A stretch of 64,000 nt of DNA from the NCBI GenBank assembly GCA_019456075.1, contig VRUN01000002.1, positions 1,418-65,417 of the forward strand, given 5' to 3'. The notes below the pieces were generated by a model. That model had not been told where the DNA came from. It did not search any database and worked only from the letters and a program-made list of their open reading frames with translations. The translations under genes and the position numbers were made by a program. Source of the DNA: Candidatus Methylomirabilota bacterium. GTDB lineage: Bacteria; Methylomirabilota; Methylomirabilia; Methylomirabilales; CSP1-5. Every line of letters starts with the position of its first letter. The stretch's first letter is position 1. This document shows positions 2,298-52,680 of the stretch, one piece after another.

Positions 2298-2391
2298 TGA
2301 ATTGCAGAGACATAGTGGGGGTGACCTCGGAATTCTGATCGAGTGAGGAGACGTATACGGGCCGTCGGTTTCCACCAGAGAGGAGTCTAAG

Positions 2392-3429
2392 ATGTCTACC
2401 AGGCTGACGAAGGTATTTCTGGTTCTGTTCGTAGTCATGGGCCTGCTGCAAGTCCCGGTGAGCTGGGCGCTTGATAAGATCCGCATTGGGTACATGCCCA
2501 TCCTTCCCTCGGCCCACGAGTTCATTGCGGCCGAGAAAGGGTGGTACCGGGAACTCGGAGTCCCGGTGGAAGAAATCCGATTCAGCTCGGGTCCGCCGAT
2601 CGTCCAGGCCTTTGCGGCGGGACAGGTAGACGTCGCCTATTTTGGCATCGGGCCCGCCCTGGTCTCGGTCGCGAAGGGGATTAAAGCCAAAGTGGTGGCT
2701 TCGGGCGTGACGGAACAGCTGGCGGTGATTGCCGTGAATTCATTTGCAGATCAGTACCAAAAAGAACCGAACCGAAAGGCCTTTCTGCAGTTCGCGAAAG
2801 CGAAAGGGCGTCCACTGAAGATCGCCACTTTTCCTCCCGGTTCCACACCCAACGTGATGCTTCGGTACTGGCTGGACAAGCTCCACGTCGATCCCGTGAA
2901 AGATGTGGAAATCCTTTCCATGGGGGCCTCCGGGGTCCGCTTGGCGGTCCTTTCACAAAAAGTGGATGCCACGATGATCTTGGAACCGATCATCACCATC
3001 ATCCGGCATTCGCCGATTCCCTACAGAATTGTTGTGTACGGCAAGCAGATTCTCCCCGGACAGCCCGGATCGATTCTGTTCGTCCGACAGAGCATCATCG
3101 ACGAGCGACCGGACATTGTGGAGAAGCTGGTCCACATGCACCTCAAGGCAACGAAGATTTTGGTCGAGAAGCGGGACGAAGCGGCGGGAATTATCTCTCG
3201 AAAGATCGGGCCTGAAGCGTTGCCGGTCAAGGTCGCCCGGGAGTCGCTGGATTCGAAGGCGCTGCACTGGGTTGCCAACCCCCATGCAATCGTTGATGGG
3301 ACGATGACCTACAACCGGTTTCAGGTGAAGCTGGGGACCTTCAAGAAGGGGGTGGACCCGAAGGATCTCTTTGACTTCCGGTTCTACGATCGCGTGATCA
3401 AAGCCCATCCTGAATACAAGGGGTACTGA
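2392..3429 (+). CDS. ABC transporter periplasmic substrate-binding protein, NMT1/SsuA/TauA (NitT/TauT) family
   Basis: N-terminal signal peptide (VFLVLFVVMGLLQVPVSWA). The sequence is NMT1/THI5-like, and the SD is GAGGAG. The adjacent permease and ATPase belong to the same transporter family. Confidence 0.8.
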   Translation: MSTRLTKVFLVLFVVMGLLQVPVSWALDKIRIGYMPILPSAHEFIAAEKGWYRELGVPVEEIRFSSGPPIVQAFAAGQVDVAYFGIGPALVSVAKGIKAKVVASGVTEQLAVIAVNSFADQYQKEPNRKAFLQFAKAKGRPLKIATFPPGSTPNVMLRYWLDKLHVDPVKDVEILSMGASGVRLAVLSQKVDATMILEPIITIIRHSPIPYRIVVYGKQILPGQPGSILFVRQSIIDERPDIVEKLVHMHLKATKILVEKRDEAAGIISRKIGPEALPVKVARESLDSKALHWVANPHAIVDGTMTYNRFQVKLGTFKKGVDPKDLFDFRFYDRVIKAHPEYKGY

Positions 3430-3441
3430 GGAGACCACGAG

Positions 3442-4215
3442 GTGAAAGGCAACCCTGTCTTGGGCATATCCCGGTTGGGACGGACGGTCGTCCAGTGCAC
3501 GTCCGTGGCGGGTTTTCTCGGCCTGTGGGAAGGGTTGGTTTGGCTCGGCTTGTTCCCTCCGTACCTGCTGCCTGCTCCCACAGCAGTCGCCACCACGTTT
3601 GTCGATCAGATCGGGAATGGGAATATCCCCCGACTGCTGGGGTACAGTCTGCGGCATTATGCCCTGGGGCTCATTTGGGGGGTGAGCCTTGGGGTCCTTC
3701 TGGGCCTCTGTATGGCCTGGTCTCGGCAGCTCGAATTGGTCCTCGACCCGATCATCGCGCTGCTGCGCCCCATTCCCCCCCTGGCATGGATTCCATTTGC
3801 GATTATTTGGTTTGGAATCACGACCCAGGCGGCGGCCTTCCTGATCTCGCTGGGGGCGTTCTATATCACGCTCTACAGCACGTATGGGGGAGTCAAAGGG
3901 ATCGATTGGCGTCTGGTGGATGTAGCGCGGACGCTCGGCGACCAATCGAATTGGGGGATCATCCGTCGTATCGTGATCCCTGCAGCCCTGCCCGCGATTC
4001 TCACCGGCATTCGGACCAGTCTCGGGCAGGGTTGGATGACTGTTGTCGCAGCGGAAATGTTTGGGATTCAAGGCATCGGACTCAAAATGCTTGAGGCGGC
4101 AGGCCTGCTGTCGATGGACGTGGTTATGGCCTATATGGCGGTGATCGGCCTCGTCTACTTCGGAATTGATCATACCTTCCGGACAGTCGAGGACCGGCTT
4201 TTGCGTTGGCGTTAG
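3442..4215 (+). CDS. ABC transporter permease (NitT/TauT family)
   Basis: Multi-pass hydrophobic protein. It has the EAA-type loop ARTLGDQSNWGIIRRIVIPAALPAILTG typical of binding-protein-dependent permeases. Confidence 0.85.
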   Translation: MKGNPVLGISRLGRTVVQCTSVAGFLGLWEGLVWLGLFPPYLLPAPTAVATTFVDQIGNGNIPRLLGYSLRHYALGLIWGVSLGVLLGLCMAWSRQLELVLDPIIALLRPIPPLAWIPFAIIWFGITTQAAAFLISLGAFYITLYSTYGGVKGIDWRLVDVARTLGDQSNWGIIRRIVIPAALPAILTGIRTSLGQGWMTVVAAEMFGIQGIGLKMLEAAGLLSMDVVMAYMAVIGLVYFGIDHTFRTVEDRLLRWR

Positions 4216-4973
4216 CGATGCGATCAACCAAGCTCGAAGTTCGAGAACTCTCCAAGGTGTTTCGCACGGTCGAGGGAAGGGAGATCCTTGCCTTGAAGGA
4301 CATCAACCTCGAGGTTTTGGACGGCGAGTTGCTCTGCATCCTTGGCTCTTCGGGCTGCGGGAAGAGCACCCTCCTACGGATCGTGGCTGGCCTCGAGCAG
4401 CCCTCGGCGGGAGATGTTCTCATCAATGGGCGGCCCCTCACGGGGCCCGGCCCGGACCGTGGGATGGTTTTTCAGGAACACCTCCTCTTCCCGTGGCGAA
4501 CGGTTCGACAGAACGTCGAGTATGGACTTGAGGTGAAGGGTGGACCGAAGACGGCGCGGGCGCAGGAGTGCCTGAGCATGGTGGGGCTCGAAAATTCCAG
4601 CGAGCAGTATCCAAAGGAATTGAGCGGGGGGATGAAGCAACGGGTGGGCATTGCCAGGGCCCTGGCGAATGATCCAGCCATCCTCCTAATGGATGAGCCC
4701 TTCGCCTCGGTAGACGCCCAGACCCGGTCCGACCTGCAAGCCATGTTGTTGACGATTTGGTGGGGTACGCGGAAAACCATCCTGTTCGTGACGCACAGCG
4801 TAGAGGAAGCTGTCTATCTGGCCGACCGTGTGATTTTAATGGGAAGTGGGTCCGGGCACATCATCGATACCGTTTCGGTCGATCTGCCGCGTCCGCGGTA
4901 TCGGGTGAGCCCGGAGTTCAATGACGTGCGGCGCGATATTCTCAAGCGCCTCGGTTTTCTTACCGGGGAATAA
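4206..4973 (+). CDS. ABC transporter ATP-binding protein (sulfonate/nitrate/taurine type)
   Basis: Walker A GSSGCGKST, signature LSGGMKQR and Walker B LLMDEPF. It overlaps the permease stop, which suggests translational coupling. Confidence 0.9.
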   Translation: MALAMRSTKLEVRELSKVFRTVEGREILALKDINLEVLDGELLCILGSSGCGKSTLLRIVAGLEQPSAGDVLINGRPLTGPGPDRGMVFQEHLLFPWRTVRQNVEYGLEVKGGPKTARAQECLSMVGLENSSEQYPKELSGGMKQRVGIARALANDPAILLMDEPFASVDAQTRSDLQAMLLTIWWGTRKTILFVTHSVEEAVYLADRVILMGSGSGHIIDTVSVDLPRPRYRVSPEFNDVRRDILKRLGFLTGE

Positions 4974-5247
4974 CACCGCCCGCGAGGGCTGGGATAATGA
5001 CGATCTCATCTCCTTCGCTGAGCGGCGCGCCAAGCACTTGGGGGTCCGTAACTTCTTCGCGGTTGATGTAGATGAGGACGAATCGGTTCAATTCTCCCTG
5101 CGGGTCAAGGAGGCGTTCGTTGAAGCCAGGATATTGCTGGTTGAGGGCAGCGAGTGCCTCCCCAACAGTGGTGGCCTCGACCTGGACAGCTTCCTGCCCC
5201 GAGGTGAGACCACGAAGGATTGAGGGAATCTTAATAGTCTGGCCCAT
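4960..5247 (-). CDS. cysO: ThiS/MoaD-family sulfur-carrier protein, CysO-like, with a 4-residue tail after the Gly-Gly
   Basis: 95 aa: MGQTIKIPSILRGLTSGQ...NRFVLIYINREEV...IIPALAGG-VIPR. It is collinear with mycobacterial CysO (IPTILR..., FVNIYVNDEDV, ILPAVAGG). SD AAGGAG lies upstream. Its 3' end overlaps the convergent ABC ATPase gene by 14 nt. Confidence 0.8.
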   Translation of the reverse strand: MGQTIKIPSILRGLTSGQEAVQVEATTVGEALAALNQQYPGFNERLLDPQGELNRFVLIYINREEVTDPQVLGAPLSEGDEIVIIPALAGGVIPR

Positions 5248-5273
5248 GGTTTTTCACGTCTCCTTACCGTGCG

Positions 5274-5302
5274 AGCATACCCGGGCAGTATTGGCCGGTC
5301 AA
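5274..5302 (-). promoter_or_regulatory. Candidate sigma70-type promoter for the CysO-like gene
   Basis: On the minus strand: TTGACC (5302-5297), a 17-nt spacer, then TATGCT (5279-5274). AAGGAG and ATG 5247 follow. This is motif inspection only. Confidence 0.35.
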
Positions 5303-5411
5303 GCCCTGATCCTCTCCACACCGAGGAGAGCAAAGCCCGCAGCGTAGTGGGACGAAAGTCCGACATGAGGTCATCCAGGAGGGTTGTTGTCCATGAGTAA
5401 GGCAGGTGTGA

Positions 5412-5624
5412 GTGGGACAAAACCTCGATTTCCTCCAGCCGGGCAAGCACCTTGTTCAAGTCCATCGGTTCCGGTATGTGCGGGCCGTGACGTGCGCCTT
5501 GGGGACCATTGAACTGGTGGTGGAAGAGACCTTCTATGGAGAGAGTGTTAAGGGCGCCTTGCAAGCCTTGATCGAGAAGCTCCGGGGGCGGCGCCCACAG
5601 GAGACCTTCCTGCCCACGGCATAA
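5412..5624 (+). CDS. Small (70 aa) uncharacterised protein, paralog of the C-terminal module of ORF 1629..2297
   Basis: GTG start sits just after an in-frame TGA, with AAGG..AGG upstream. LDFLQPGKHLVQVHRFRYVRAVTCALG...LIEKLRGRRPQETFLPTA aligns with nt 2016-2294. The synonymous-substitution pattern supports + strand coding. It stops 21 nt before tauE. Confidence 0.65.
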   Translation: MGQNLDFLQPGKHLVQVHRFRYVRAVTCALGTIELVVEETFYGESVKGALQALIEKLRGRRPQETFLPTA

Positions 5625-5645
5625 GAGAGTACGCATGGAGAATTC

Positions 5646-6413
5646 ATGACGGATTCGCTGCTCGTAATTGCGTGCATCGGAATGATCTCGGGCTGGATCA
5701 CGGGTGCGTCTGCCGTAGCGTGGGGGGCGTTGAGCGTTCCGCTGCTGATTCTCGTTGGGGTTGAGCCGTTAACGGCGATCAGCTCGAGTCTCGGGGCTTC
5801 CGTTTTTCTGAGCCTGTTCGGCGGCTGGACCCATTGGCATTATGACCATTCGCGGCTAGCCCCCCTCCTGCCACTTTTGGTTGGGGGAGTAGGAGGGGCT
5901 TTCCTGGGGAGTTTCCTGAGTCCCGCACTTCCAGCGCAGACGCTTCGCGCTCTGATTGGCGCGACGACCCTGATCATAGGATTACTGATGCTTTTGCGGC
6001 GGAATGGGATCAGTGCTGAGAGTGGTGCCAAGGGGCTCATGAAATTGCGCGAGAAGCGGGCGACGATCTTTGGGATCGGGGTCATAGCCGGCTTTTTCGC
6101 CGGAGCGATCGGTGCAGGGTGGGGGACGATCGGCGTCGCTTTGCTAGTGTGGACAGGCATTCCGGCCCACACCGTCGTTGGGTCTTCGCTTTTGGCCCGG
6201 TCTCTGGTGGCCTTGGCCGCAAGCGGCTCGTATACCCTGCAGACGGGGCTTCCCCCTGTGGACGTTTTCTTACCGTTACTCGTCGCCGGGGGAGCGGGCG
6301 TGTATCTCGGGGTCCGGTCCTCGAATGGATTCTCACCCCTGACGATGCGGAAATTCATTGGGGGGGTGGTTGCGATCGTGGGGGTTGTGGCCGTAGTCGG
6401 CATTCCATGGTGA
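5646..6413 (+). CDS. tauE: TauE/SafE-family sulfite/sulfonate exporter-type membrane protein
   Basis: 255 aa and highly hydrophobic (about 7-8 TM segments). Gly-rich helices are typical of the TauE/SafE (DUF81) family. SD GGAGAA lies upstream. Confidence 0.75.
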   Translation: MTDSLLVIACIGMISGWITGASAVAWGALSVPLLILVGVEPLTAISSSLGASVFLSLFGGWTHWHYDHSRLAPLLPLLVGGVGGAFLGSFLSPALPAQTLRALIGATTLIIGLLMLLRRNGISAESGAKGLMKLREKRATIFGIGVIAGFFAGAIGAGWGTIGVALLVWTGIPAHTVVGSSLLARSLVALAASGSYTLQTGLPPVDVFLPLLVAGGAGVYLGVRSSNGFSPLTMRKFIGGVVAIVGVVAVVGIPW

Positions 6414-6584
6414 GGTCGGAAGTTCCTCGCTCTGAGCAGTCGGTGGGAATGGGGAAACACCGACAGGGCGGATAAAGGATGCAATGGGGGGAGGAAAAGG
6501 CTTTCGAGCTCAAGACGGGTGTCGGTGAGTGCGCCGTGTAAGGGGACTACCGTCGGGACGGGATCCGAAGAAGAGGTGCAACAG

Positions 6585-7517
6585 ATGGGATTTCAGGGTT
6601 TAACGGTGGCGGTCACGGGGAGCCGGAGAGCCTCGGAGCAGGCCGAGCTGATCTCGAAGCTCGGTGGGGTCCCATACGTGGCCCCGACCGTCGGCATTGA
6701 AGTCCAAGACGAGGCGGACTTTCAAACGGAAGGGTTGGTCCACAAGATTGTTGGAAGAGAATTTGATTATGCCGTCTTCATGACAGGTCCCGGTGTCTAT
6801 CGCTTGATATCGACAGCTCAGAAGCTGGGATTAGAGGGCGAACTGGTCGAGGTGTTGAATCGTATCTTTGTGGTTGCACGGAGTCACAAGCCGCAGAAGG
6901 TTCTGGAGAGATATGAGGTTCGGGTGGACTTGGTGCCATCTGACAATACCTCGGAGGGAATCGCTGCAGAGATGGCCAACCTTGACCTCCAGGGCAAGGG
7001 CGTCGCCATTCTGTGGTATGGCGAGTCGCAGACGGTTCTCCGGGAAACCTTAGAGCGAGGCGGGGCAAAAGTCTTCGAGGCGATGGCCTACATGTACTCA
7101 CTGGAGCTCAAGGAAAGGGGGGCCGAGGTCCTTGCGGCGGTCGGCTTCAAATCCATACCTCCCGAGAACCGAAAGATCCTGCAGCTCATCGATGATCTCA
7201 TAAAAAGGAAGATTCACATCATTACCTTTACGAGTCCTCCGTCGGCCAGAAACCTCTTCCGGTTTGCGGAAGCGCACGGCCTGGACGGGGACCTGCGTCG
7301 ATGCCTGAATGAAGACATTCTCGTCGTCGCTGTAGGGCCGCCGACGCGGCGGGCTATTGAGGAAAGCGGCGTCGCCGCCGATGTGATGCCTGACGTCTAC
7401 AAGTTGGGACCCATGATGCGAGCCGCGATTGATTATCTGATTCGCGATCTCTCCCGGACTCCGAAAAGGGCTCTTGGGAAGGTGGAGATCGGGACCGAAG
7501 GAGACGAGCGTGGATGA
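6585..7517 (+). CDS. hemD: Uroporphyrinogen-III synthase (HemD)-like protein
   Basis: ORF 6519..7517; likely start is ATG 6585 after GAGGTG. It has HEM4-like repeats (LTVAVTGSRR..., IHIITFTSPPSARNLF, LVVAVGPPTRRAIEE). Context is the siroheme and sulfite reductase genes. Confidence 0.6.
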   Translation: MGFQGLTVAVTGSRRASEQAELISKLGGVPYVAPTVGIEVQDEADFQTEGLVHKIVGREFDYAVFMTGPGVYRLISTAQKLGLEGELVEVLNRIFVVARSHKPQKVLERYEVRVDLVPSDNTSEGIAAEMANLDLQGKGVAILWYGESQTVLRETLERGGAKVFEAMAYMYSLELKERGAEVLAAVGFKSIPPENRKILQLIDDLIKRKIHIITFTSPPSARNLFRFAEAHGLDGDLRRCLNEDILVVAVGPPTRRAIEESGVAADVMPDVYKLGPMMRAAIDYLIRDLSRTPKRALGKVEIGTEGDERG

Positions 7518-7637
7518 GGCACCATTCCAAGTATAAGTCAAGGTCTACTCGCACGTGGTGTGGGGGGTCTTCGAGCTATCGGGGGTGTGCTGGTCACCAG
7601 AGACTGCCCAAAGTAAGAAATTCACGCTGGTGGAGAT

Positions 7638-9482
7638 ATGGAAGAGATCAATCCAAATCTGAGAACACCCTTGGAGGAACTTTCCAAGCTAGAGCGCGCC
7701 AAGCTTGACTCCAACGGAATCCGCGGAAATCTCTTTCAGGATTTCCGGGATACTTCTGTGGCCGATGTTGCGTGGGAGTCCGAACAGCTCGCCAAATCCC
7801 ACGGCATTTATCTTGAATGGAATCGGGCCAAGACAGGCAAAGAAAAAGAATGGATGTACATGATCAGGATCAGTATTCCTGGTGGAGGTCCCATCACACG
7901 AGAACAATGGATGGTGTTTGACGAGTTATCGGAGCGGTTCACCGTCAACCCTGAGGGCAGTCCGTCGTTGCGGATTACCACCAGGCAAAACATCCAGTTC
8001 CATTGGGTGAAGAAAGCGCATGTTCTTGAGGTTGTGCGGGGGGTCGCTGAATCCGGATTTTACAGTGTGAATGGATGTGGAGACAACGTCAGAAATGTCA
8101 TGGGATGCCCCGTTTCTCGCTTCTCGAAAGTTTATGACGCCAATGCCTGGGCGCAAAAAGCTGGGAAATATTTCAGGCTTCCCACCGCAGCCTTCATTGA
8201 AATCTTTGCGATAGACCCGAACTATTTACGGGATCCAGAGGAGCGATTCCAGTACGGTCCCAATTTGTTAAACCGAAAATTTAAGATCGGCTTTTCGGCG
8301 ACACACTTTGATGAGGAAAAAGGGACGTATGTTCCGGATAATTGTGTGGAACTCCGCACAAATGACATCGGCGTCGCGCCGATTGTGGAAGATGGCAATG
8401 TCAGGCGATTCCAGGTGTTTATTGGGGGGAGCCAAGGAGAAAGGAACGGGAAGCCCACGTTTTCTGCGATGGGAGAACCCTTTTGCATCGTGACAGAGAG
8501 CGAATTATTAAAAGTCCTGGATGGAATCGTGCAGGTGCATCAGGAGTGGGGTGACCGTCAAAACCGTCACTGGGCTCGAATGAAATATGTCCTAAGAAAG
8601 CAAGGAATGGAGTGGTTCCGAGTACAAGTTCGTCAGGTCAGCGGCTGCGATTTTGAAATGCCCGACCCGGATCATGATTACGGGAACAGGCATCTGCATC
8701 ACGGTTGGATGGTCCAGCCGTCCGATGGACGGCTGTCCTACGGGGCCTTTATCGAGAACGGACGGATCGTCGACGGCCCGAATGGAAGACTCAAAGCCAT
8801 GGTCCGGTACGTCATGCATAAATATCCCGTTCAGCTGATGACGACTCCTAATCAGGATATCTTGTTCACGAATATCCCACCAGGCGTCGAGTCGGAATTT
8901 GAGCCCTACTTGAGAAGTTTTGGGTACGGCATGCGACACGGACGGCGCTACTCGCGGCTTCGCCTGCTGTCCGGTGCCTGCGTCGGAAGAGATACCTGCC
9001 AGCTTACGTATACGGATGCTGAAAAATTTGAACCCTCTTTGATTGACGAATTAGAGCAGAAATGGGGGGAGATGGCCGAGTCCATCGGCGTCACCGGGTG
9101 TGAACGGCAATGTTTTCGCCCTGCAACAAAGACCATTGGCTGGGTTGGAATGGGTCTAGACAGGTACCAGCTCAAATTGGGCGGGACCGAGGACGGGAGA
9201 CATCAAGGGGAGCCACTGATTGATCGAGAGACGGGTGAGATGTACCTGCGGAGTGTCCCGCGAGAAGAGGTGGGCACGGTCAGCGATGTGCTCTTTGAAT
9301 TCTATAGTGCAAATAGATTACCGGGCGAAGGGATGGGATATTTTCATCAACGAATCGGCAGGGAGCTGATCATTAAGCATCTGAAAGAGAACCCGAGAAC
9401 AGCCCAACTGATGAAAACCACCTTTAAGAGCCCGCGGAGCCGAAAGGGGGATGTGCATGGAGACCAAGAGTCAACTGGATGA
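7638..9482 (+). CDS. sir: Assimilatory sulfite reductase hemoprotein (siroheme/[4Fe-4S], ferredoxin-type Sir/NirA family)
   Basis: 614 aa. N-terminus has LERAKLDSNGIRGNLFQDF, followed by NIR_SIR repeats. Cluster Cys motifs are SGACVGRDTC and TGCERQCFRP. It sits next to cysH, sat and cobA. Confidence 0.8.
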   Translation: MEEINPNLRTPLEELSKLERAKLDSNGIRGNLFQDFRDTSVADVAWESEQLAKSHGIYLEWNRAKTGKEKEWMYMIRISIPGGGPITREQWMVFDELSERFTVNPEGSPSLRITTRQNIQFHWVKKAHVLEVVRGVAESGFYSVNGCGDNVRNVMGCPVSRFSKVYDANAWAQKAGKYFRLPTAAFIEIFAIDPNYLRDPEERFQYGPNLLNRKFKIGFSATHFDEEKGTYVPDNCVELRTNDIGVAPIVEDGNVRRFQVFIGGSQGERNGKPTFSAMGEPFCIVTESELLKVLDGIVQVHQEWGDRQNRHWARMKYVLRKQGMEWFRVQVRQVSGCDFEMPDPDHDYGNRHLHHGWMVQPSDGRLSYGAFIENGRIVDGPNGRLKAMVRYVMHKYPVQLMTTPNQDILFTNIPPGVESEFEPYLRSFGYGMRHGRRYSRLRLLSGACVGRDTCQLTYTDAEKFEPSLIDELEQKWGEMAESIGVTGCERQCFRPATKTIGWVGMGLDRYQLKLGGTEDGRHQGEPLIDRETGEMYLRSVPREEVGTVSDVLFEFYSANRLPGEGMGYFHQRIGRELIIKHLKENPRTAQLMKTTFKSPRSRKGDVHGDQESTG

Positions 9483-47304: not shown

Positions 47305-47334
47305 TTGACAGGGAGGGGAGAAGAGAGCTATTTT
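47305..47334 (+). promoter_or_regulatory. Candidate sigma70-type promoter upstream of the TPP-enzyme/ilv cluster
   Basis: TTGACA (47305-10), an 18-nt spacer, then TATTTT (47329-34), followed by an untranslated leader of about 120 nt. Confidence 0.35.
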
Positions 47335-47455
47335 ATTCGCCACTTTTCGTCATGCCCGCGGTTGGCCCTCGGCCTTTAGAAACGGGAATGTCTGATACTT
47401 TGTTTGAGCGCACGAAGGGCAATGTGACGTTTACTCTGTAAGCGAGGGGAGAACT

Positions 47456-49222
47456 ATGAGCATTGAAGCAGGAAGTCCTGGCCTCGGGAAGGACGTCGGA
47501 AACTTTGCGTTGATCGACACCCTGAATCAATGGGGGATTACCCATTATAGCGGGGTGAATGGGGGAGGGATTATCCACGTTACCAAGTATTTAGAGCCGC
47601 TCACCCACCCGTCACAAATCACGGATGGCGTTCCCCGGTTTCTCACTATGGGGGAATATGCGTCGGGCTTTATGCCCTTGGGGTATTACCTCGCCTCTGG
47701 CCGGGTTGCCTGCTCCATCACCACGACCGGTGCCGCAACGAAGCTCGGCTCCAGCGGGATCACCGACGCAAAACTGCACAACATCCCCTCCCTGTATATC
47801 CTTGCCCTGAATTCCATAATGTCGATCGGGAATGCCCCCTTACAGGATGTGTCACATTACGGGATGAACATTGTCCCCCAACTGCAAGCCGAGGTGGGGG
47901 ATGGCTGCATCGTCATCGACGACATCAACCGACTCGAACAGGACCTCGACAAGGCCCAGCGCATGCTTCACGATTGGCGCCCCGTGGTCATTGCGTTCCA
48001 TCCGGACATCCTGTCGAAAGAAATTGAGGTGCATGTTCCCAAAAGAGAGAGGGCGCGTACTCTCAACAATCAGGACGTGGAGGTCTTCCTTAAGGAGTTC
48101 CCGACGATGGCAAAGGGACGCCGGGTGATTATTTACGTCGGCGAGGAGGCAGCCTTCTGTCCAAACATCGAGAAGCTTTCGACAGAATTGTCCGAACTCC
48201 TCCAAGCTCCCACCATCTGGTCGATCAATGGGGCCAACGCTGTTTCGGGCAAAAACCCTTACAGCTACGGGTACATTCTGTTCGGCGGCAATGACAAGGC
48301 AATGGAGCTGTGGCGGAGCATCAATCAGGACGATATCGTGATCACCCTCGGTTTCTGCCCCGGGGAGTATTCGATCAACCTGGAGAGCATTCGCGCGAAG
48401 TGCACGTGGCACTTTGGTGCGTACCCGTATGGCTACGGCCAAGTGAACGGGGATTTTCGACACCGGTGTCTGGGAGACTACAAGCAGGTCCGTGGCGATA
48501 TCGGGCTGGCACTCGAGGCGGTCCTGCCTCACCTGAAGGCTATAGGCGTGGGGAAGGACAGGCCGAAGGTCGAGCAGTTGGAAGATCTGAACTTCCGTGA
48601 GGTCTGGCGGGACGTCCGCAAGGACTGTGTGGACTTCATGGCCTTTTACGAGGAGTTGCCGAAACACTGGCAACCACACAGTATTGGATTCGATGACGTC
48701 TGCCTCTCCTATAAGGATCGGCAGTATGTCACCCAGCGACAACACCCGAATATCAAATTCTGGACGCCGCATCATGGCTCGGCCATGGGCGGGTCATTCG
48801 GCATGGGCGTTGGGGCCAAGCTGGCTGATCCCACACTCCACACCTTCATGTTCTCCGGAGATGGATGCTGGCGGCTCTTTGGGGGGTGCTTGGCCGACGC
48901 GGCCAACCTGGACCTCCGCTTGTTCATTATCAACAATGGGACTTACGGGATCGTCGACAAGGGGCTCGAGGTTATCATCCCGACCGTCGAAAAACCCCGC
49001 TACCATTCCAAGTTGCCGAGTATCGATTTTGTCGCGGCGGCCAAGGCCCACGGCTGGGATGGCTTCTATCTGAAACCGGACCTCAGCAACATGAAAGAGA
49101 TCATGGATGCCTGCTACACGTCCTCGGGCAGATCAATTCTGGTTGATGTCCCGATGGACACCGAGCAAGTGGTGGGCCTGAACGCTCGGCTGCTCAACCT
49201 GACGGCACAAGCCTATCTCTAA
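47456..49222 (+). CDS. Thiamine-diphosphate-dependent enzyme, divergent AHAS/pyruvate-oxidase-superfamily paralog (specificity unknown)
   Basis: 588 aa. The Pyr domain retains a Glu (TMGEYASGF) and has TTTGAATKLGSSG. The PP domain has GDG...NN (FSGDGCWRL...FIINNGTYG). It is too divergent from IlvB/IlvG to assign a function. Confidence 0.7.
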   Translation: MSIEAGSPGLGKDVGNFALIDTLNQWGITHYSGVNGGGIIHVTKYLEPLTHPSQITDGVPRFLTMGEYASGFMPLGYYLASGRVACSITTTGAATKLGSSGITDAKLHNIPSLYILALNSIMSIGNAPLQDVSHYGMNIVPQLQAEVGDGCIVIDDINRLEQDLDKAQRMLHDWRPVVIAFHPDILSKEIEVHVPKRERARTLNNQDVEVFLKEFPTMAKGRRVIIYVGEEAAFCPNIEKLSTELSELLQAPTIWSINGANAVSGKNPYSYGYILFGGNDKAMELWRSINQDDIVITLGFCPGEYSINLESIRAKCTWHFGAYPYGYGQVNGDFRHRCLGDYKQVRGDIGLALEAVLPHLKAIGVGKDRPKVEQLEDLNFREVWRDVRKDCVDFMAFYEELPKHWQPHSIGFDDVCLSYKDRQYVTQRQHPNIKFWTPHHGSAMGGSFGMGVGAKLADPTLHTFMFSGDGCWRLFGGCLADAANLDLRLFIINNGTYGIVDKGLEVIIPTVEKPRYHSKLPSIDFVAAAKAHGWDGFYLKPDLSNMKEIMDACYTSSGRSILVDVPMDTEQVVGLNARLLNLTAQAYL

Positions 49223-49291: not shown

Positions 49292-51022
49292 TTGAAGTTT
49301 ACCGGTTCGGAGATCCTGGTGAAATCTCTGCTAGAGGAGGGGGTAACCACGATCTTCGGCCAACCGGGTGACGTGTTCCTCCACGGGCCTGACGCCCACA
49401 GAGATCCCCCATTCAAACACATTCGCTGTCGCCACGGGCAGGTGGCCACCCATGCGGCCGAGGGGTACTACAAGGCGACTGGGAGGACCGGGACGGTCGT
49501 GGTCAGCTCGGGTTCAGCGGCCACGAATTGTGTGACAGCCATCACCGATGCCCTGATGGACTCGATGGCCATTGTGGTGCTCAATGGACACGATCCTACA
49601 GCCATCATGGGTTGTGATACTTCCCAAGAGGCGGATGTCGTGGGGACCACCCGGTCCTGCACCAAGCACAATTTATTGACCCTGAAAGCCGATCACATTC
49701 CTCGCGTCATCAAAGAGGCGTATTTTATTGCCCGCTCTGGTCGGCCGGGCCCGGTTCTGGTGGACCTTCCGCAGGATGTCATGACGGGCCGAGCCGAGTT
49801 CAAGGGGTATCCCAAGTCTGTGTCCATTCGGGGCTACAATCCCCAGGTCAACGGCCACCCCGGGCAGATCAAGAAGGCGGCCGATCTCATCGCCCACGCC
49901 AAGCGCCCCGTGATTTACGGAGGCGGAGGCATTATTCACTCGGACGCCTCTGAAGAATTTTGCGAGCTGGTAGACATCACACAGATCCCGACCACCTTGA
50001 CCCTCATGGGGCTCGGCGCTCTGCCCACCGATCACCCACTTTGGTTGGGCATGCCTGGGATGTACGGGATCTTTTGCGCCAACAAGTGTATGATCAACTG
50101 CGACCTGATGATCGCCATTGGGTCGCGTTTCGATGATCGGGTCACGGGAAAACTCGCCGACTTCGGCAAGCAATGCAAGGTCATCCATGTGGATATCGAC
50201 CCGACGTCGATCCAGAAGAACGTCAAGGTGGACATCCCGATTGTTGGCGATGTGAAGTCTGTGCTTCGAGACCTCAACAAAGAGCTACGGAAGATAGAGC
50301 GGAACTGGGCAACGGAATTCAAGGATTGGTATGCGCAAATCGAAGCCTGGAGGAAACAGCATCCCGTCCGCTACGAGCAAAAGGAGGGCACAACGAAGCC
50401 CCAGTACGCTGTCGATATGATCCTTCGTTTGACGGAGGACTACGACCCGATCATCTCTACCGGGGTAGGACAGCACCAGATATGGACAGCCCAGGTCTAT
50501 CGGGGACGCAAACCCCGCCGTTGGGTTACGTCGGGCGGCCTGGGGACCATGGGATACGGCTTTGCGGCCGCGCTGGGGGCCCAGGCGGCTTTTCCCAAAA
50601 GTTTGGTCGTGAACATTGAAGGCGACGGTGGCTTCCAGATGGCCATGTCAGATCTGTGCACTCTCGTGGAACACAATCTGCCACTCAAGACTTTTGTGAT
50701 CAACAACAAGGGTATGGGTATGGTCCGCCAATGGCAGCAGCACGTTTCCCCCCAGCGCGCGTCACACCCAGACCTGACGCATCAACCCGACTTTGTGAAA
50801 CTTGCGGAGGCCTGCGGTGTTGCGGGGATGCGGATTGAACGGCCGGACGAGGTCAAGGCGGGGATTGAAAAGGCTATCAATACTCCGGGGCCTGTCGTGG
50901 TGGATCTCGTGGTAGAACGAGAGGAACACTGCTTTCCGATAATCCCTGTGGGAACACCCTCCAAAGATGCAACTGATGCAGGAGGTGCGACTCCTGACAA
51001 GGTCCCTCAGGGGTGGCGTTGA
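49292..51022 (+). CDS. ilvB: Acetolactate synthase large-subunit-like protein with a non-canonical Pyr domain (catalytic Glu replaced by Gly)
   Basis: TTG start, 576 aa. The middle and PP domains are canonical (VGQHQIWTAQ, GGLGTMGYG, EGDGGFQM, INNKGMGMVRQWQ). RHEQ reads RHGQ (Gly49, ggg 49436-38), GPGATN reads GSAATN, FQE reads SQE, and GMHG reads GMYG. ilvN and ilvC follow. Confidence 0.8.
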   Translation: MKFTGSEILVKSLLEEGVTTIFGQPGDVFLHGPDAHRDPPFKHIRCRHGQVATHAAEGYYKATGRTGTVVVSSGSAATNCVTAITDALMDSMAIVVLNGHDPTAIMGCDTSQEADVVGTTRSCTKHNLLTLKADHIPRVIKEAYFIARSGRPGPVLVDLPQDVMTGRAEFKGYPKSVSIRGYNPQVNGHPGQIKKAADLIAHAKRPVIYGGGGIIHSDASEEFCELVDITQIPTTLTLMGLGALPTDHPLWLGMPGMYGIFCANKCMINCDLMIAIGSRFDDRVTGKLADFGKQCKVIHVDIDPTSIQKNVKVDIPIVGDVKSVLRDLNKELRKIERNWATEFKDWYAQIEAWRKQHPVRYEQKEGTTKPQYAVDMILRLTEDYDPIISTGVGQHQIWTAQVYRGRKPRRWVTSGGLGTMGYGFAAALGAQAAFPKSLVVNIEGDGGFQMAMSDLCTLVEHNLPLKTFVINNKGMGMVRQWQQHVSPQRASHPDLTHQPDFVKLAEACGVAGMRIERPDEVKAGIEKAINTPGPVVVDLVVEREEHCFPIIPVGTPSKDATDAGGATPDKVPQGWR

Positions 51023-51082: not shown

Positions 51083-51658
51083 ATGAAGGAAGACACTTCC
51101 CGACGACGGCACATTCTCACTCTCTTAGTGGAGAACCGCATCGGCGTTCTGGCCAAGATTGCTGGCCTGATCGCAGCCAAGGGCTATAATATCGATAGTG
51201 TCTCCGTCGGGGAGACAATGGACAATTCGATTTCCCGGATTACCCTCGTAGTCCACGGGGATGATTGGGTCATGGAGCAGGTGCTTAAACAACTCAATCG
51301 GCTGATCGATGTGATTAAAGTTGTGGATATGACAGAGGAGGACTACATCGAGCGCGAAATGATCCTCGTTCGGGTGAACGCCGATCCTCCCGACCGGGCC
51401 GAGATCCTTCGAATTGCGGATATCTTTCGCGCCAAGGTGGTTGATCTGACGCACCGGACCTATACCTTGGAGGTAACCGGAGACGAAGATAAGATTCAGG
51501 CTCTGCTCGAACTGCTGCGGCCCTTTGGGATTAAGGAGCTGGTCCGAACCGGACGAATCGCCATCGGCCGGGCGAATAAGAGTCTACCCAGAAAGCTGGA
51601 ACGCGTGGCGGGAAATGATGAGGAGGTCGAAAAGAAGTCCACCGCGGCTGTGAAGTAA
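51083..51658 (+). CDS. ilvN: Acetolactate synthase small (regulatory) subunit
   Basis: ACT domain [36 protein letters not shown] and a C-terminal ALS_ss_C-like domain. Confidence 0.93.
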
Positions 51659-51678: not shown

Positions 51679-52680
51679 ATGGCAAAGCTCTATTACGATA
51701 AAGACGCAGATCTCGCCCTCCTAAAAGGAAAAAACATTGCCATCATTGGGTACGGGAGCCAGGGCCATGCCCATGCCCTCAACCTGAAAGACGGGGGCTT
51801 CGATGTCGTGGTCGGGCTGTACCAAGGCTCAAAATCCTGGGACAAGGCCACAGCAGATGGGCTCAAAGTGATGACGGTGGACGAGGCGGCCTCGGCGGCC
51901 CACGTCATCATGATCCTGCTCCCCGACCAGCACCAGCGTCATGTCTATCTCGAGTCGATCCGGCAGGGCCTCACGCCTGGAAAGACCCTGATGTTCGCCC
52001 ACGGCTTTAACATCCATTTCCACCAAGTGCTACCCCCAAAGGATGTAGACGTCTCCATGGTGGCCCCCAAGGCGCCGGGACACATAATGCGGCGTATCTA
52101 CACGGAGGGATCCGGCGTCCCCGCACTGCTGGCCATCCATCAAGACTCGTCAGGGAAGGCAAAGGAGATGGGGTTGGCGTACGCCAAGGGAATTGGATGT
52201 ACACGGGCCGGGGTTCTCGAGACGACGTTCAGAGAGGAGACGGAGACCGACCTGTTCGGGGAACAGACGGTCCTGTGCGGCGGCCTCTCAGCCTTGATCA
52301 AGGCCGCGTATGAAACGCTGGTGGAAGCAGGGTACCAACCAGAACTGGCCTATTTCGAGTGCCTCCATGAAGTCAAGTTGATCGTGGATCTCTTTTACCA
52401 GGGGGGTCTCGCCTACATGCGGTACTCCGTGAGTGACACGGCCGAGTACGGCGATTACAGCCGAGGGCCCCGGGTAATCAACGAGGCCGTGCGGGCGGAG
52501 ATGAAGAAGATTCTGCAAGAGGTCCAGGATGGCACCTTCGCCAGGGAATGGATCTTGGAGAATCAAGCGGGTCGCCCCAGCTTCCTGGCGCTCCGCAAAA
52601 AGGACGCCGATCATCCTATCGAGGTCGTGGGAAGAGAGCTTCGTTCCATGATGACCTGGCTCCCGGGAGGGCCCAAATAG
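51679..52680 (+). CDS. ilvC: Ketol-acid reductoisomerase (class I)
   Basis: 333 aa with [15 protein letters not shown]. The sequence is canonical throughout. Confidence 0.97.

Follow-up and report, generated by a model that had tools for sequence, protein, structure and literature searches.

Acetohydroxyacid synthase (AHAS) belongs to the decarboxylase superfamily of thiamine diphosphate (ThDP)-dependent enzymes, in which a glutamate of the pyrimidine-binding (Pyr) domain is the conserved activator of ThDP; glyoxylate carboligase (Gcl), which carries Val at this position, is the family-wide exception (PMC3534367). Positions G121, A122, V196, P197, A205, F206, Q207, H352, R377 and W574 of AHAS (Arabidopsis numbering, used below for such positions) have been named as herbicide-resistance or docking sites, with A122 and A205 known as resistance sites and F206 and H352 as herbicide-docking residues of the substrate channel (PMC10386087). 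The catalytic centre of yeast pyruvate decarboxylase (PDC) includes Asp28, a residue that acetolactate synthases do not conserve (PMC4701669). The present analysis concerns an AHAS large-subunit gene without the activating Glu (hereafter ilvB-like; 49292..51022, + strand) in a 64,000-nucleotide stretch of DNA, referred to in full as the window, from contig C51 of a 1.78-Mb metagenome-assembled genome (MAG; 92.9% complete, labelled G000) of the genus CSP1-5, Methylomirabilota (NC10).

A natural AHAS ortholog that lacks this near-universal Glu, yet is kept by selection, must either work as a new kind of enzyme independent of the Glu or represent a clear case of a ThDP pseudoenzyme. What is new here is a Glu-less IlvB variant of the AHAS large subunit, carried by a small clade of uncultured NC10 bacteria. 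The reading preferred below, to which about an even chance is given, is that a divergent ThDP enzyme encoded directly upstream (TPP-X) now makes acetolactate, and that IlvB has lost normal AHAS catalysis and is retained together with the regulatory subunit IlvN for a secondary role.

An AHAS ortholog without the ThDP-activating glutamate

The ilvB-like open reading frame (ORF) encodes 576 residues and begins with a TTG codon behind a Shine-Dalgarno-like site (GGGGAG). A preliminary description of the window had reported departures from invariant AHAS motifs beside canonical motifs of the flavin adenine dinucleotide (FAD)-type middle domain and the pyrophosphate-binding (PP) domain, and every motif that it quoted is present: GQPGDV (residues 23–28), CRHGQ (46–50), GSAATN (74–79), TSQEAD (110–115) and GMYG (256–259) on the divergent side, and VGQHQIW, GGLGTMGYG and GDGGF...INNKG on the canonical side. 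The protein further reads NGHDP at residues 98–102, and RFDDR and VRQWQ join the canonical set. Direct reading of the sequence bears out that Gly49, which replaces the invariant Glu of RHEQ (E144), is encoded by GGG at 49436..49438 (+), where the nearest relative has CCA (Pro). The alignment had been called gap-free, which holds for this region against orthologs of the same genus, but one single-residue gap falls in the N-terminal domain when Arabidopsis AHAS is the reference.

Arabidopsis AHAS is the best structural match (8et5/1ybh, E 4e-135), close enough to leave no doubt about the fold, and its alignment places Asp27-Val28 (49370..49375) at the Gly-Ala of GxPGGA (G121, A122), His100-Asp101 (49589..49594) at the Gln-Val of TGQVP (Q195, V196), Thr110-Ser111-Gln112 (49619..49627) at Ala-Phe-Gln (A205, F206, Q207) and Tyr258 (50063..50065) at the His of GMHG (H352), all on the + strand. 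D27 is fixed in all five Glu-less sequences that were found, and the Gln kept here at Q207 is His in the relative P0124. P197, Q207, R377 and W574 are retained, and the ThDP-Mg motif GDGGF...INNKG of the PP domain is intact (50621..50713, +; residues 444–448 and 470–474).

By family profile the protein passes as an AHAS large subunit (TIGR00118, 684.5 bits against a cut-off of 538.35), and the Pyr, FAD-type middle and PP architecture is complete (Pfam accessions: PF02776, residues 4–115, merely 83.8 bits; PF00205, 193–328; PF02775, 391–538). With biosynthetic AHAS (IlvB/IlvI/IlvG, TIGR00118; 1ybh/8et5, 6lpi) it shares these three domains, a downstream gene for the regulatory subunit, the GDG-X(24-27)-NN, GGLGTMG, RFDDR and QW motifs, a position in the tree nested within the IlvB of Methylomirabilales, and an ilvB–ilvN–ilvC order that is syntenic across the genus; on these sequence grounds ilvB-like is truly orthologous to the catalytic subunit of AHAS. 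It differs in having Gly49 for the activating Glu, in six changed channel, catalytic or herbicide-site residues (G121D, A122V, V196D, A205T, F206S and H352Y), in Q195H and the residues that follow the lid Trp, and in having a second, unrelated-looking ThDP enzyme at the head of its operon. Automatic annotation names the Glu-less protein a 'biosynthetic-type acetolactate synthase large subunit', which is probably wrong.

Gcl (2pan) is the next-best family in the Protein Data Bank (PDB) after AHAS (E 1e-81), and as a member of the same superfamily it too is naturally without the canonical Glu (PMC3534367); its Val, however, is conserved family-wide, whereas the ilvB-like clade has Gly or Pro, unfixed, and ilvB-like sits inside AHAS in the tree and beside ilvN–ilvC in the genome. 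Membership of Gcl was rejected on the profile score (TIGR01504, 302.3 bits against a cut-off of 711.2) and on the presence of Gly or Pro rather than Val. PDCs differ in keeping the Glu and in having an HH motif and Glu477, none of which is seen in ilvB-like. The GxPGD of the Glu-less clade, where AHAS has GxPGG, presumably matches the PDC motif with the catalytic Asp.

Authenticity of the glutamate loss

Among the 120 nearest homologs in a collection of 5.8 billion proteins, Glu occupies the position in 116, where it is invariant; of the four clusters without it, three have Gly, among them the 38-member cluster to which the window's own protein belongs, and one has Pro. That 38-member cluster, derived from Logan, reads CRHGQ and matches at 99% identity over the 190 N-terminal residues used in the search. 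Read support at codon 49436–49438 and the state of the codon in relatives had been raised in the preliminary description as points to settle, and both now speak for the Gly: contigs from four runs of four studies (two of DNA, one probably of DNA and one metatranscriptome) cover the codon without difference, and sister lineages carry Gly or Pro together with the same other substitutions. Fourteen DNA runs, from seven studies, contain around 90% or more of the sampled words of the whole stretch. Because the codon agrees in independent assemblies and the loss is common to relatives, sequencing error is excluded, and the Glu loss is real and inherited.

Contigs of the metatranscriptome library show no expression level, may include carried-over DNA, and carry no weight where they leave parts uncovered. 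In one metatranscriptome run (X17), a contig matches just 40 nt of ilvC (51746–51785) with unlike sequence on both sides, and probably represents a conserved segment of a relative.

Stepwise change of IlvB within the genus CSP1-5

In a maximum-likelihood tree the genus falls into two groups, a canonical clade with short branches (G002, G005, G011 and G012) and a 'derived' clade (support 100/98), and the five Glu-less sequences form one clade (100/100) nested in the latter. In every derived member A122 has become V, L, M or I, and a small residue stands at F206; to these changes the Glu-less members add L45R and E49G/P (window numbering), G121D, Q195H, V196D, A205T and H352Y. The IlvB channel was reshaped first, in one sub-clade, through the larger residue at A122 and the small one at F206, and the Glu was replaced later in the nested clade, accompanied there by G121D, Q195H, V196D, A205T and H352Y and followed by purifying selection.

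Deviations were scored at 130 sites with at least 97% conservation among 32 outgroup AHAS: canonical members deviate 2–4 times, derived members with Glu 8–13 times and Glu-less members 15–19 times; the deviations of the latter (9–12 of 54 sites in the Pyr domain, 1 of 37 in the FAD domain and 4–7 of 39 in the PP domain) are concentrated in the Pyr domain and in the lid after the conserved Trp, and lie for the most part near the active-site channel. Active-site positions vary among the Glu-less relatives, namely residues 49 (G/P), 111 (S/A), 112 (Q/H), 482 (Q/Y), 485 (V/R/H) and 490 (A/S), and the Gly and Pro codons at residue 49, GGG and CCA, lie at least two codon changes apart. Neither a frameshift nor a stop was found in the 17 derived-clade ilvB sequences, which include all five Glu-less ones.

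The only organisms that a metagenome scan for further Glu-less DNA recovered were that of the window and a relative, SPGG6, so that the codon analyses rest on two genomes, P0124 and P0125 being available as proteins only. G006, counted among the derived members with Glu, and G021, a genome of genus g5 counted as having TPP-X, are flagged as unpublished; the conclusions depend on neither.

A separate observation concerns G013 (locus L018), a derived member that retains the Glu and reads EAGHHAD where AHAS has DAFQEAD (window residues 108–114), FQE having become GHH: an independent loss of the catalytic Gln and of the Glu next to it, on the longest branch of the tree (0.28).

Selection on ilvB and its neighbours

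Ratios of non-synonymous to synonymous substitution (dN/dS) were estimated by the NG86 method, the Glu-less pair being G000–G009 (dS 0.5–0.75, ∼0.67 over the whole gene). For ilvB this pair gives 0.139 (Pyr 0.16, FAD 0.11, PP 0.13), compared with 0.056–0.080 in canonical pairs of the genus (Pyr 0.03–0.06) and 0.12–0.15 in other derived pairs; for the neighbouring genes of the same pair the values are 0.085 (TPP-X), 0.071 (ilvC), 0.091 (ilvN), 0.14 (murJ) and 0.18 (holA), and TPP-X stays at 0.05–0.09 across pairs. The ilvB-like gene is clearly non-neutral, with constraint relaxed ∼2-fold overall and 3–4-fold in the Pyr domain, and the low ratio in the Glu-less pair indicates that it is kept by selection rather than decaying as a pseudogene. 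Loss of an essential catalytic residue from an ORF under purifying selection, as expected of a pseudoenzyme, is observed here, and the variation of active-site positions within the clade would be indirect evidence that catalysis is absent.

Values for single branches were derived from pairwise distances by non-negative least squares, a rough procedure in which synonymous distances approach saturation for some pairs. On the stem of the Glu-less clade, the Pyr domain has a dN of 0.042 (0.019–0.066) with dS fitted at ∼0, and the other two domains have a dN of 0.021 with a dS of 0.17; Pyr-domain replacements exceed the synonymous estimate in 95% of bootstraps under this rough distance method, but the Pyr-domain ratio is only ∼0.24 if the stem dS of the other domains (0.17) is used. 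The burst is compatible either with positive selection or with constraint suddenly relieved, which the method cannot tell apart.

TPP-X as a probable acetolactate synthase

TPP-X (47456..49222, + strand) is a divergent three-domain ThDP enzyme of 588 residues with both half-sites intact: Glu67 (in MGEYASG) aligns to the Glu of CsmA, and the GDG...NN motif is present. Its Pfam matches are weak (37, 27 and 54 bits for the N, M and C domains), it reaches just 64 bits on TIGR00118, and its best PDB matches are CsmA (8x3z, E 3e-14) and E. coli AHAS I (6lpi). It is far more conserved than ilvB-like: identity across several phyla is 65–91%, and among 117 homologs 247 of the 588 sites reach at least 95% conservation; the copy in G000 deviates at 5 of these 247, and the Glu-less genomes show no sign of co-adaptation in TPP-X. 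Homologs are annotated 'thiamine pyrophosphate-binding protein / acetolactate synthase large subunit', and a literature search for a described acetolactate synthase of this type or a biochemical study of one, extended to CsmA and BbmA, found nothing useful.

TPP-X lies directly upstream of ilvC in four phyla (Methylomirabilota, Nitrospinae, Anaerolineae and Armatimonadetes). The order TPPX–ilvB–ilvN–ilvC is found in CSP1-5 and at one Armatimonadetes locus, and TPPX–ilvC, with neither ilvB nor ilvN between, at five distinct Methylomirabilis loci, one in Nitrospinae and one in Anaerolineae. The Methylomirabilis TPPX–ilvC loci have the same flanks as the window (holA, murJ ... miaA, aroA), which places TPP-X in the ilvBN slot. 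No TIGR00118 match over the cut-off was found in the TPP-X-bearing genomes G038, G040, G053 and G122 (88, 94, 87 and 98% complete), nor ilvN in G038 and G040, where it was also sought. Eight genomes of genus g8 were searched with both proteins: the two with TPP-X give weak ilvB-like matches (E 3e-5 and 4e-9), and the other six have an ilvB ortholog and no TPP-X.

In G000 itself, ilvB-like is the sole TIGR00118-type gene by profile search of the genome, and a search for decarboxylase-type ThDP enzymes found none besides ilvB-like and TPP-X; a third TPP_enzyme_C match (contig C56) proved to be the beta subunit of a 2-oxoacid:ferredoxin oxidoreductase and was set aside as an AHAS candidate. Gene context and complementary distribution together indicate that TPP-X is probably the functional acetolactate synthase of this genome. 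It would share with IlvB a superfamily and, probably, a pathway role as the first step before IlvC, but the two are only distantly similar, and TPP-X stands without ilvN where ilvBN was not found.

The ancestor of the genus CSP1-5 already possessed TPP-X, whose distribution over the phylum is patchy (19 of 170 Methylomirabilota genomes, 5 of 58 genera). Between G004 and G007 (loci L061 and L071, with TPP-X at 5001–6764 in both), the dS of TPP-X is 0.88 against 0.26–0.34 for holA, murJ, ilvB, ilvN and ilvC, an outlier indicating that TPP-X was probably exchanged alone, by recombination or transfer, inside a conserved locus and without ilvB. Patchiness and this outlier together suggest horizontal exchange of TPP-X.

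A single phylum displays the stages of a displacement, from ilvBN only, through TPP-X with canonical ilvBN, TPP-X with a reshaped ilvB and TPP-X with a Glu-less ilvB, to TPP-X only, and this series gives independent comparative support to TPP-X as an undescribed acetolactate synthase. Pathway reconstructions would probably call TPP-X-only genomes auxotrophic for branched-chain amino acids, and that call, too, is probably wrong.

Two further features of TPP-X loci were noted. At TPP-X-only Methylomirabilis loci a metF gene (methylenetetrahydrofolate reductase) lies between ilvC and miaA (L057, 8987–9925; L058, 8829–9773), a position that it does not occupy in the window. In genus g5 (locus L059 of G034, 2366–8292), TPP-X lies beside genes for a carbon-nitrogen hydrolase and an isoleucyl-tRNA synthetase (IleRS)-type class I tRNA synthetase rather than ilvC, and g5 genomes have, at another place, a canonical ilvB that is more distantly related.

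Proposed displacement of IlvB and alternative explanations

The preferred reading describes a non-orthologous displacement caught part-way. TPP-X would supply acetolactate to IlvC, and in one sub-clade selection would have ceased to maintain AHAS catalysis by the resident IlvB, which would in the end have lost its Glu; a homodimer of the Glu-less protein, with catalytic positions drifting, would make traces of acetolactate at best. Since purifying selection acts on ilvB and ilvN, the motifs for ThDP-Mg and FAD are preserved and no disrupted copy was seen, the protein must do something: with ThDP and FAD binding still predicted, it may be kept with IlvN for a structural or regulatory role, for example in a valine-binding IlvB–IlvN complex, or for a low-level side activity.

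Several observations weigh against this reading. The dN/dS of ∼0.14, the open ORFs and the intact GDG...NN, GGLGTMG, RFDDR and FAD motifs imply that binding of ThDP and FAD is probably still selected, which is not obviously required of a purely non-catalytic protein, and constraint on ilvN (0.091) matches that in canonical genomes, as would fit a catalytic partner still in need of regulation. All Glu-less sequences share the polar and potentially catalytic residues D27, R45, H100, D101 and Y258. Co-residence alone does not cause decay, for three CSP1-5 genomes and an Armatimonadetes genome keep a fully canonical ilvB beside TPP-X; and the function of TPP-X, which in some other genomes lies away from ilvC, is deduced from context and complementary distribution only.

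The chief rival is that ilvB-like is still a working ThDP enzyme, independent of the Glu in the manner of Gcl, which performs a slower AHAS reaction, a reaction with a changed donor or acceptor or a decarboxylase-like chemistry, under regulation by IlvN and in a division of labour with TPP-X. The preliminary description had offered a Glu-less enzyme of altered chemistry as its first option, and it survives, as possible but rather unlikely. Purifying selection in all three domains, the intact cofactor motifs and the conserved ilvN are as it predicts; along the substrate channel, D27, V28, R45, H100, D101 and Y258 are invariant in the clade, and the Pyr-domain burst on the stem, above the synonymous estimate in 95% of bootstraps by the rough method, also counts in its favour. 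D27 creates a GxPGD that presumably resembles the PDC motif. Asp28 of yeast PDC is a catalytic-centre residue (PMC4701669), and a natural precedent exists in Gcl, with Val across the family (PMC3534367). Set against these are the lack of fixation at residue 49, where Gly and Pro are at least two codon changes apart; the variation at residues 111, 112, 482, 485 and 490, including the His that stands for the catalytic Gln in P0124, which would be unexpected of a newly optimised active site; a score far below the Gcl model (302 bits against 711 on TIGR01504); and a Pyr-domain stem ratio of just ∼0.24 once the dS of the other domains is used. It is this active-site variation among the Glu-less relatives that tilts the balance towards loss of canonical catalysis.

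A bolder form of the same idea would make the Glu-less clade a second natural lineage of Glu-independent ThDP catalysis, with a different, IlvN-regulated reaction built on the new polar residues (Asp at G121, as in PDCs, Arg45, His100, Asp101 and Tyr258) and with TPP-X as a new class of acetolactate synthase that supplies the pathway; this more specific claim is considered unlikely.

An ilvB-like gene already without function, a young and still undisrupted pseudogene that would end in the TPP-X-only state of some Methylomirabilis genomes, would account for the graded build-up of changes at conserved sites, for the existence of that end state and for its occurrence in a clade of small genomes (1.78 Mb at 93% completeness). 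It is nevertheless improbable: every domain has had a dN/dS of 0.11–0.16 since the Glu-less genomes split, much as in the neighbouring murJ and holA, none of the 17 derived-clade sequences, the five Glu-less ones included, has a broken ORF, the start codon and Shine-Dalgarno-like site are intact, and metatranscriptome contigs cover parts of the gene, although DNA carry-over is possible there.

ThDP enzyme active sites form across the Pyr/PP dimer interface, so an obligate heterodimer can also be envisaged in which the Pyr domain of TPP-X completes the PP domain of IlvB to give one working hybrid site; the genes are adjacent and apparently co-transcribed, and the defect of IlvB lies mainly in its Pyr half-site, with the PP half-site intact. 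The preliminary description, in proposing such a heteromer, correctly singled out the adjacent paralog, but the evidence favours replacement and leaves the heterodimer very doubtful. Both half-sites of TPP-X are intact and it stands elsewhere where no ilvB was found; a new interface is not apparent from its 5 deviations at 247 family-conserved sites; its similarity to IlvB is distant (64 bits on TIGR00118), and in G004 it was probably exchanged alone (dS 0.88 against ∼0.3); and a hybrid would add nothing over a TPP-X homodimer.

The last of the three options first put forward, a sequencing or assembly error in this MAG, for which a single base change from GAG to GGG would suffice, is refuted by the contigs of four runs from four studies, the 38-member cluster at 99% identity, and the Gly- or Pro-bearing relatives with the same accompanying substitutions.

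Locus organisation and further observations

The gene order is holA, murJ, TPP-X, ilvB-like, ilvN, ilvC, miaA, aroA, with gaps of 69, 60 and 20 nt between TPP-X, ilvB-like, ilvN and ilvC. Downstream of ilvB-like, ilvN (51083..51658, +) encodes an intact and conserved AHAS regulatory small subunit (NF008864, 221 bits against a cut-off of 119), and ilvC (51679..52680, +), identified by profile matches and well constrained (dN/dS 0.071), encodes the ketol-acid reductoisomerase that consumes acetolactate; ilvD is located elsewhere in the genome.

A sigma-70-like match (TTGACA-18-TATTTT; 47305..47334, +) upstream of TPP-X is the sole one in the region, although it is a consensus match only and the match count does not exceed the shuffled expectation. 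As no such match was found between TPP-X, ilvB, ilvN and ilvC, the four genes are probably one operon. A search of 44–54 kb against Rfam with E up to 1 gave no match, and neither a riboswitch nor a T-box was found in the TPP-X leader.

A third ThDP paralog occurs in most members of the genus (L177, 1737–3422, − strand; G009, contig C61), resembles PRK05858 or 2-hydroxyacyl-CoA lyase at scores below all curated cut-offs, and was not found in G000 (93% complete). Within the TPP-X leader, downstream of the promoter-like site (47411–47445), six base differences in a stretch of 21 nt and the loss of 1 nt at 47445 are common to contigs from two other samples; differences in the coding regions downstream are far sparser.

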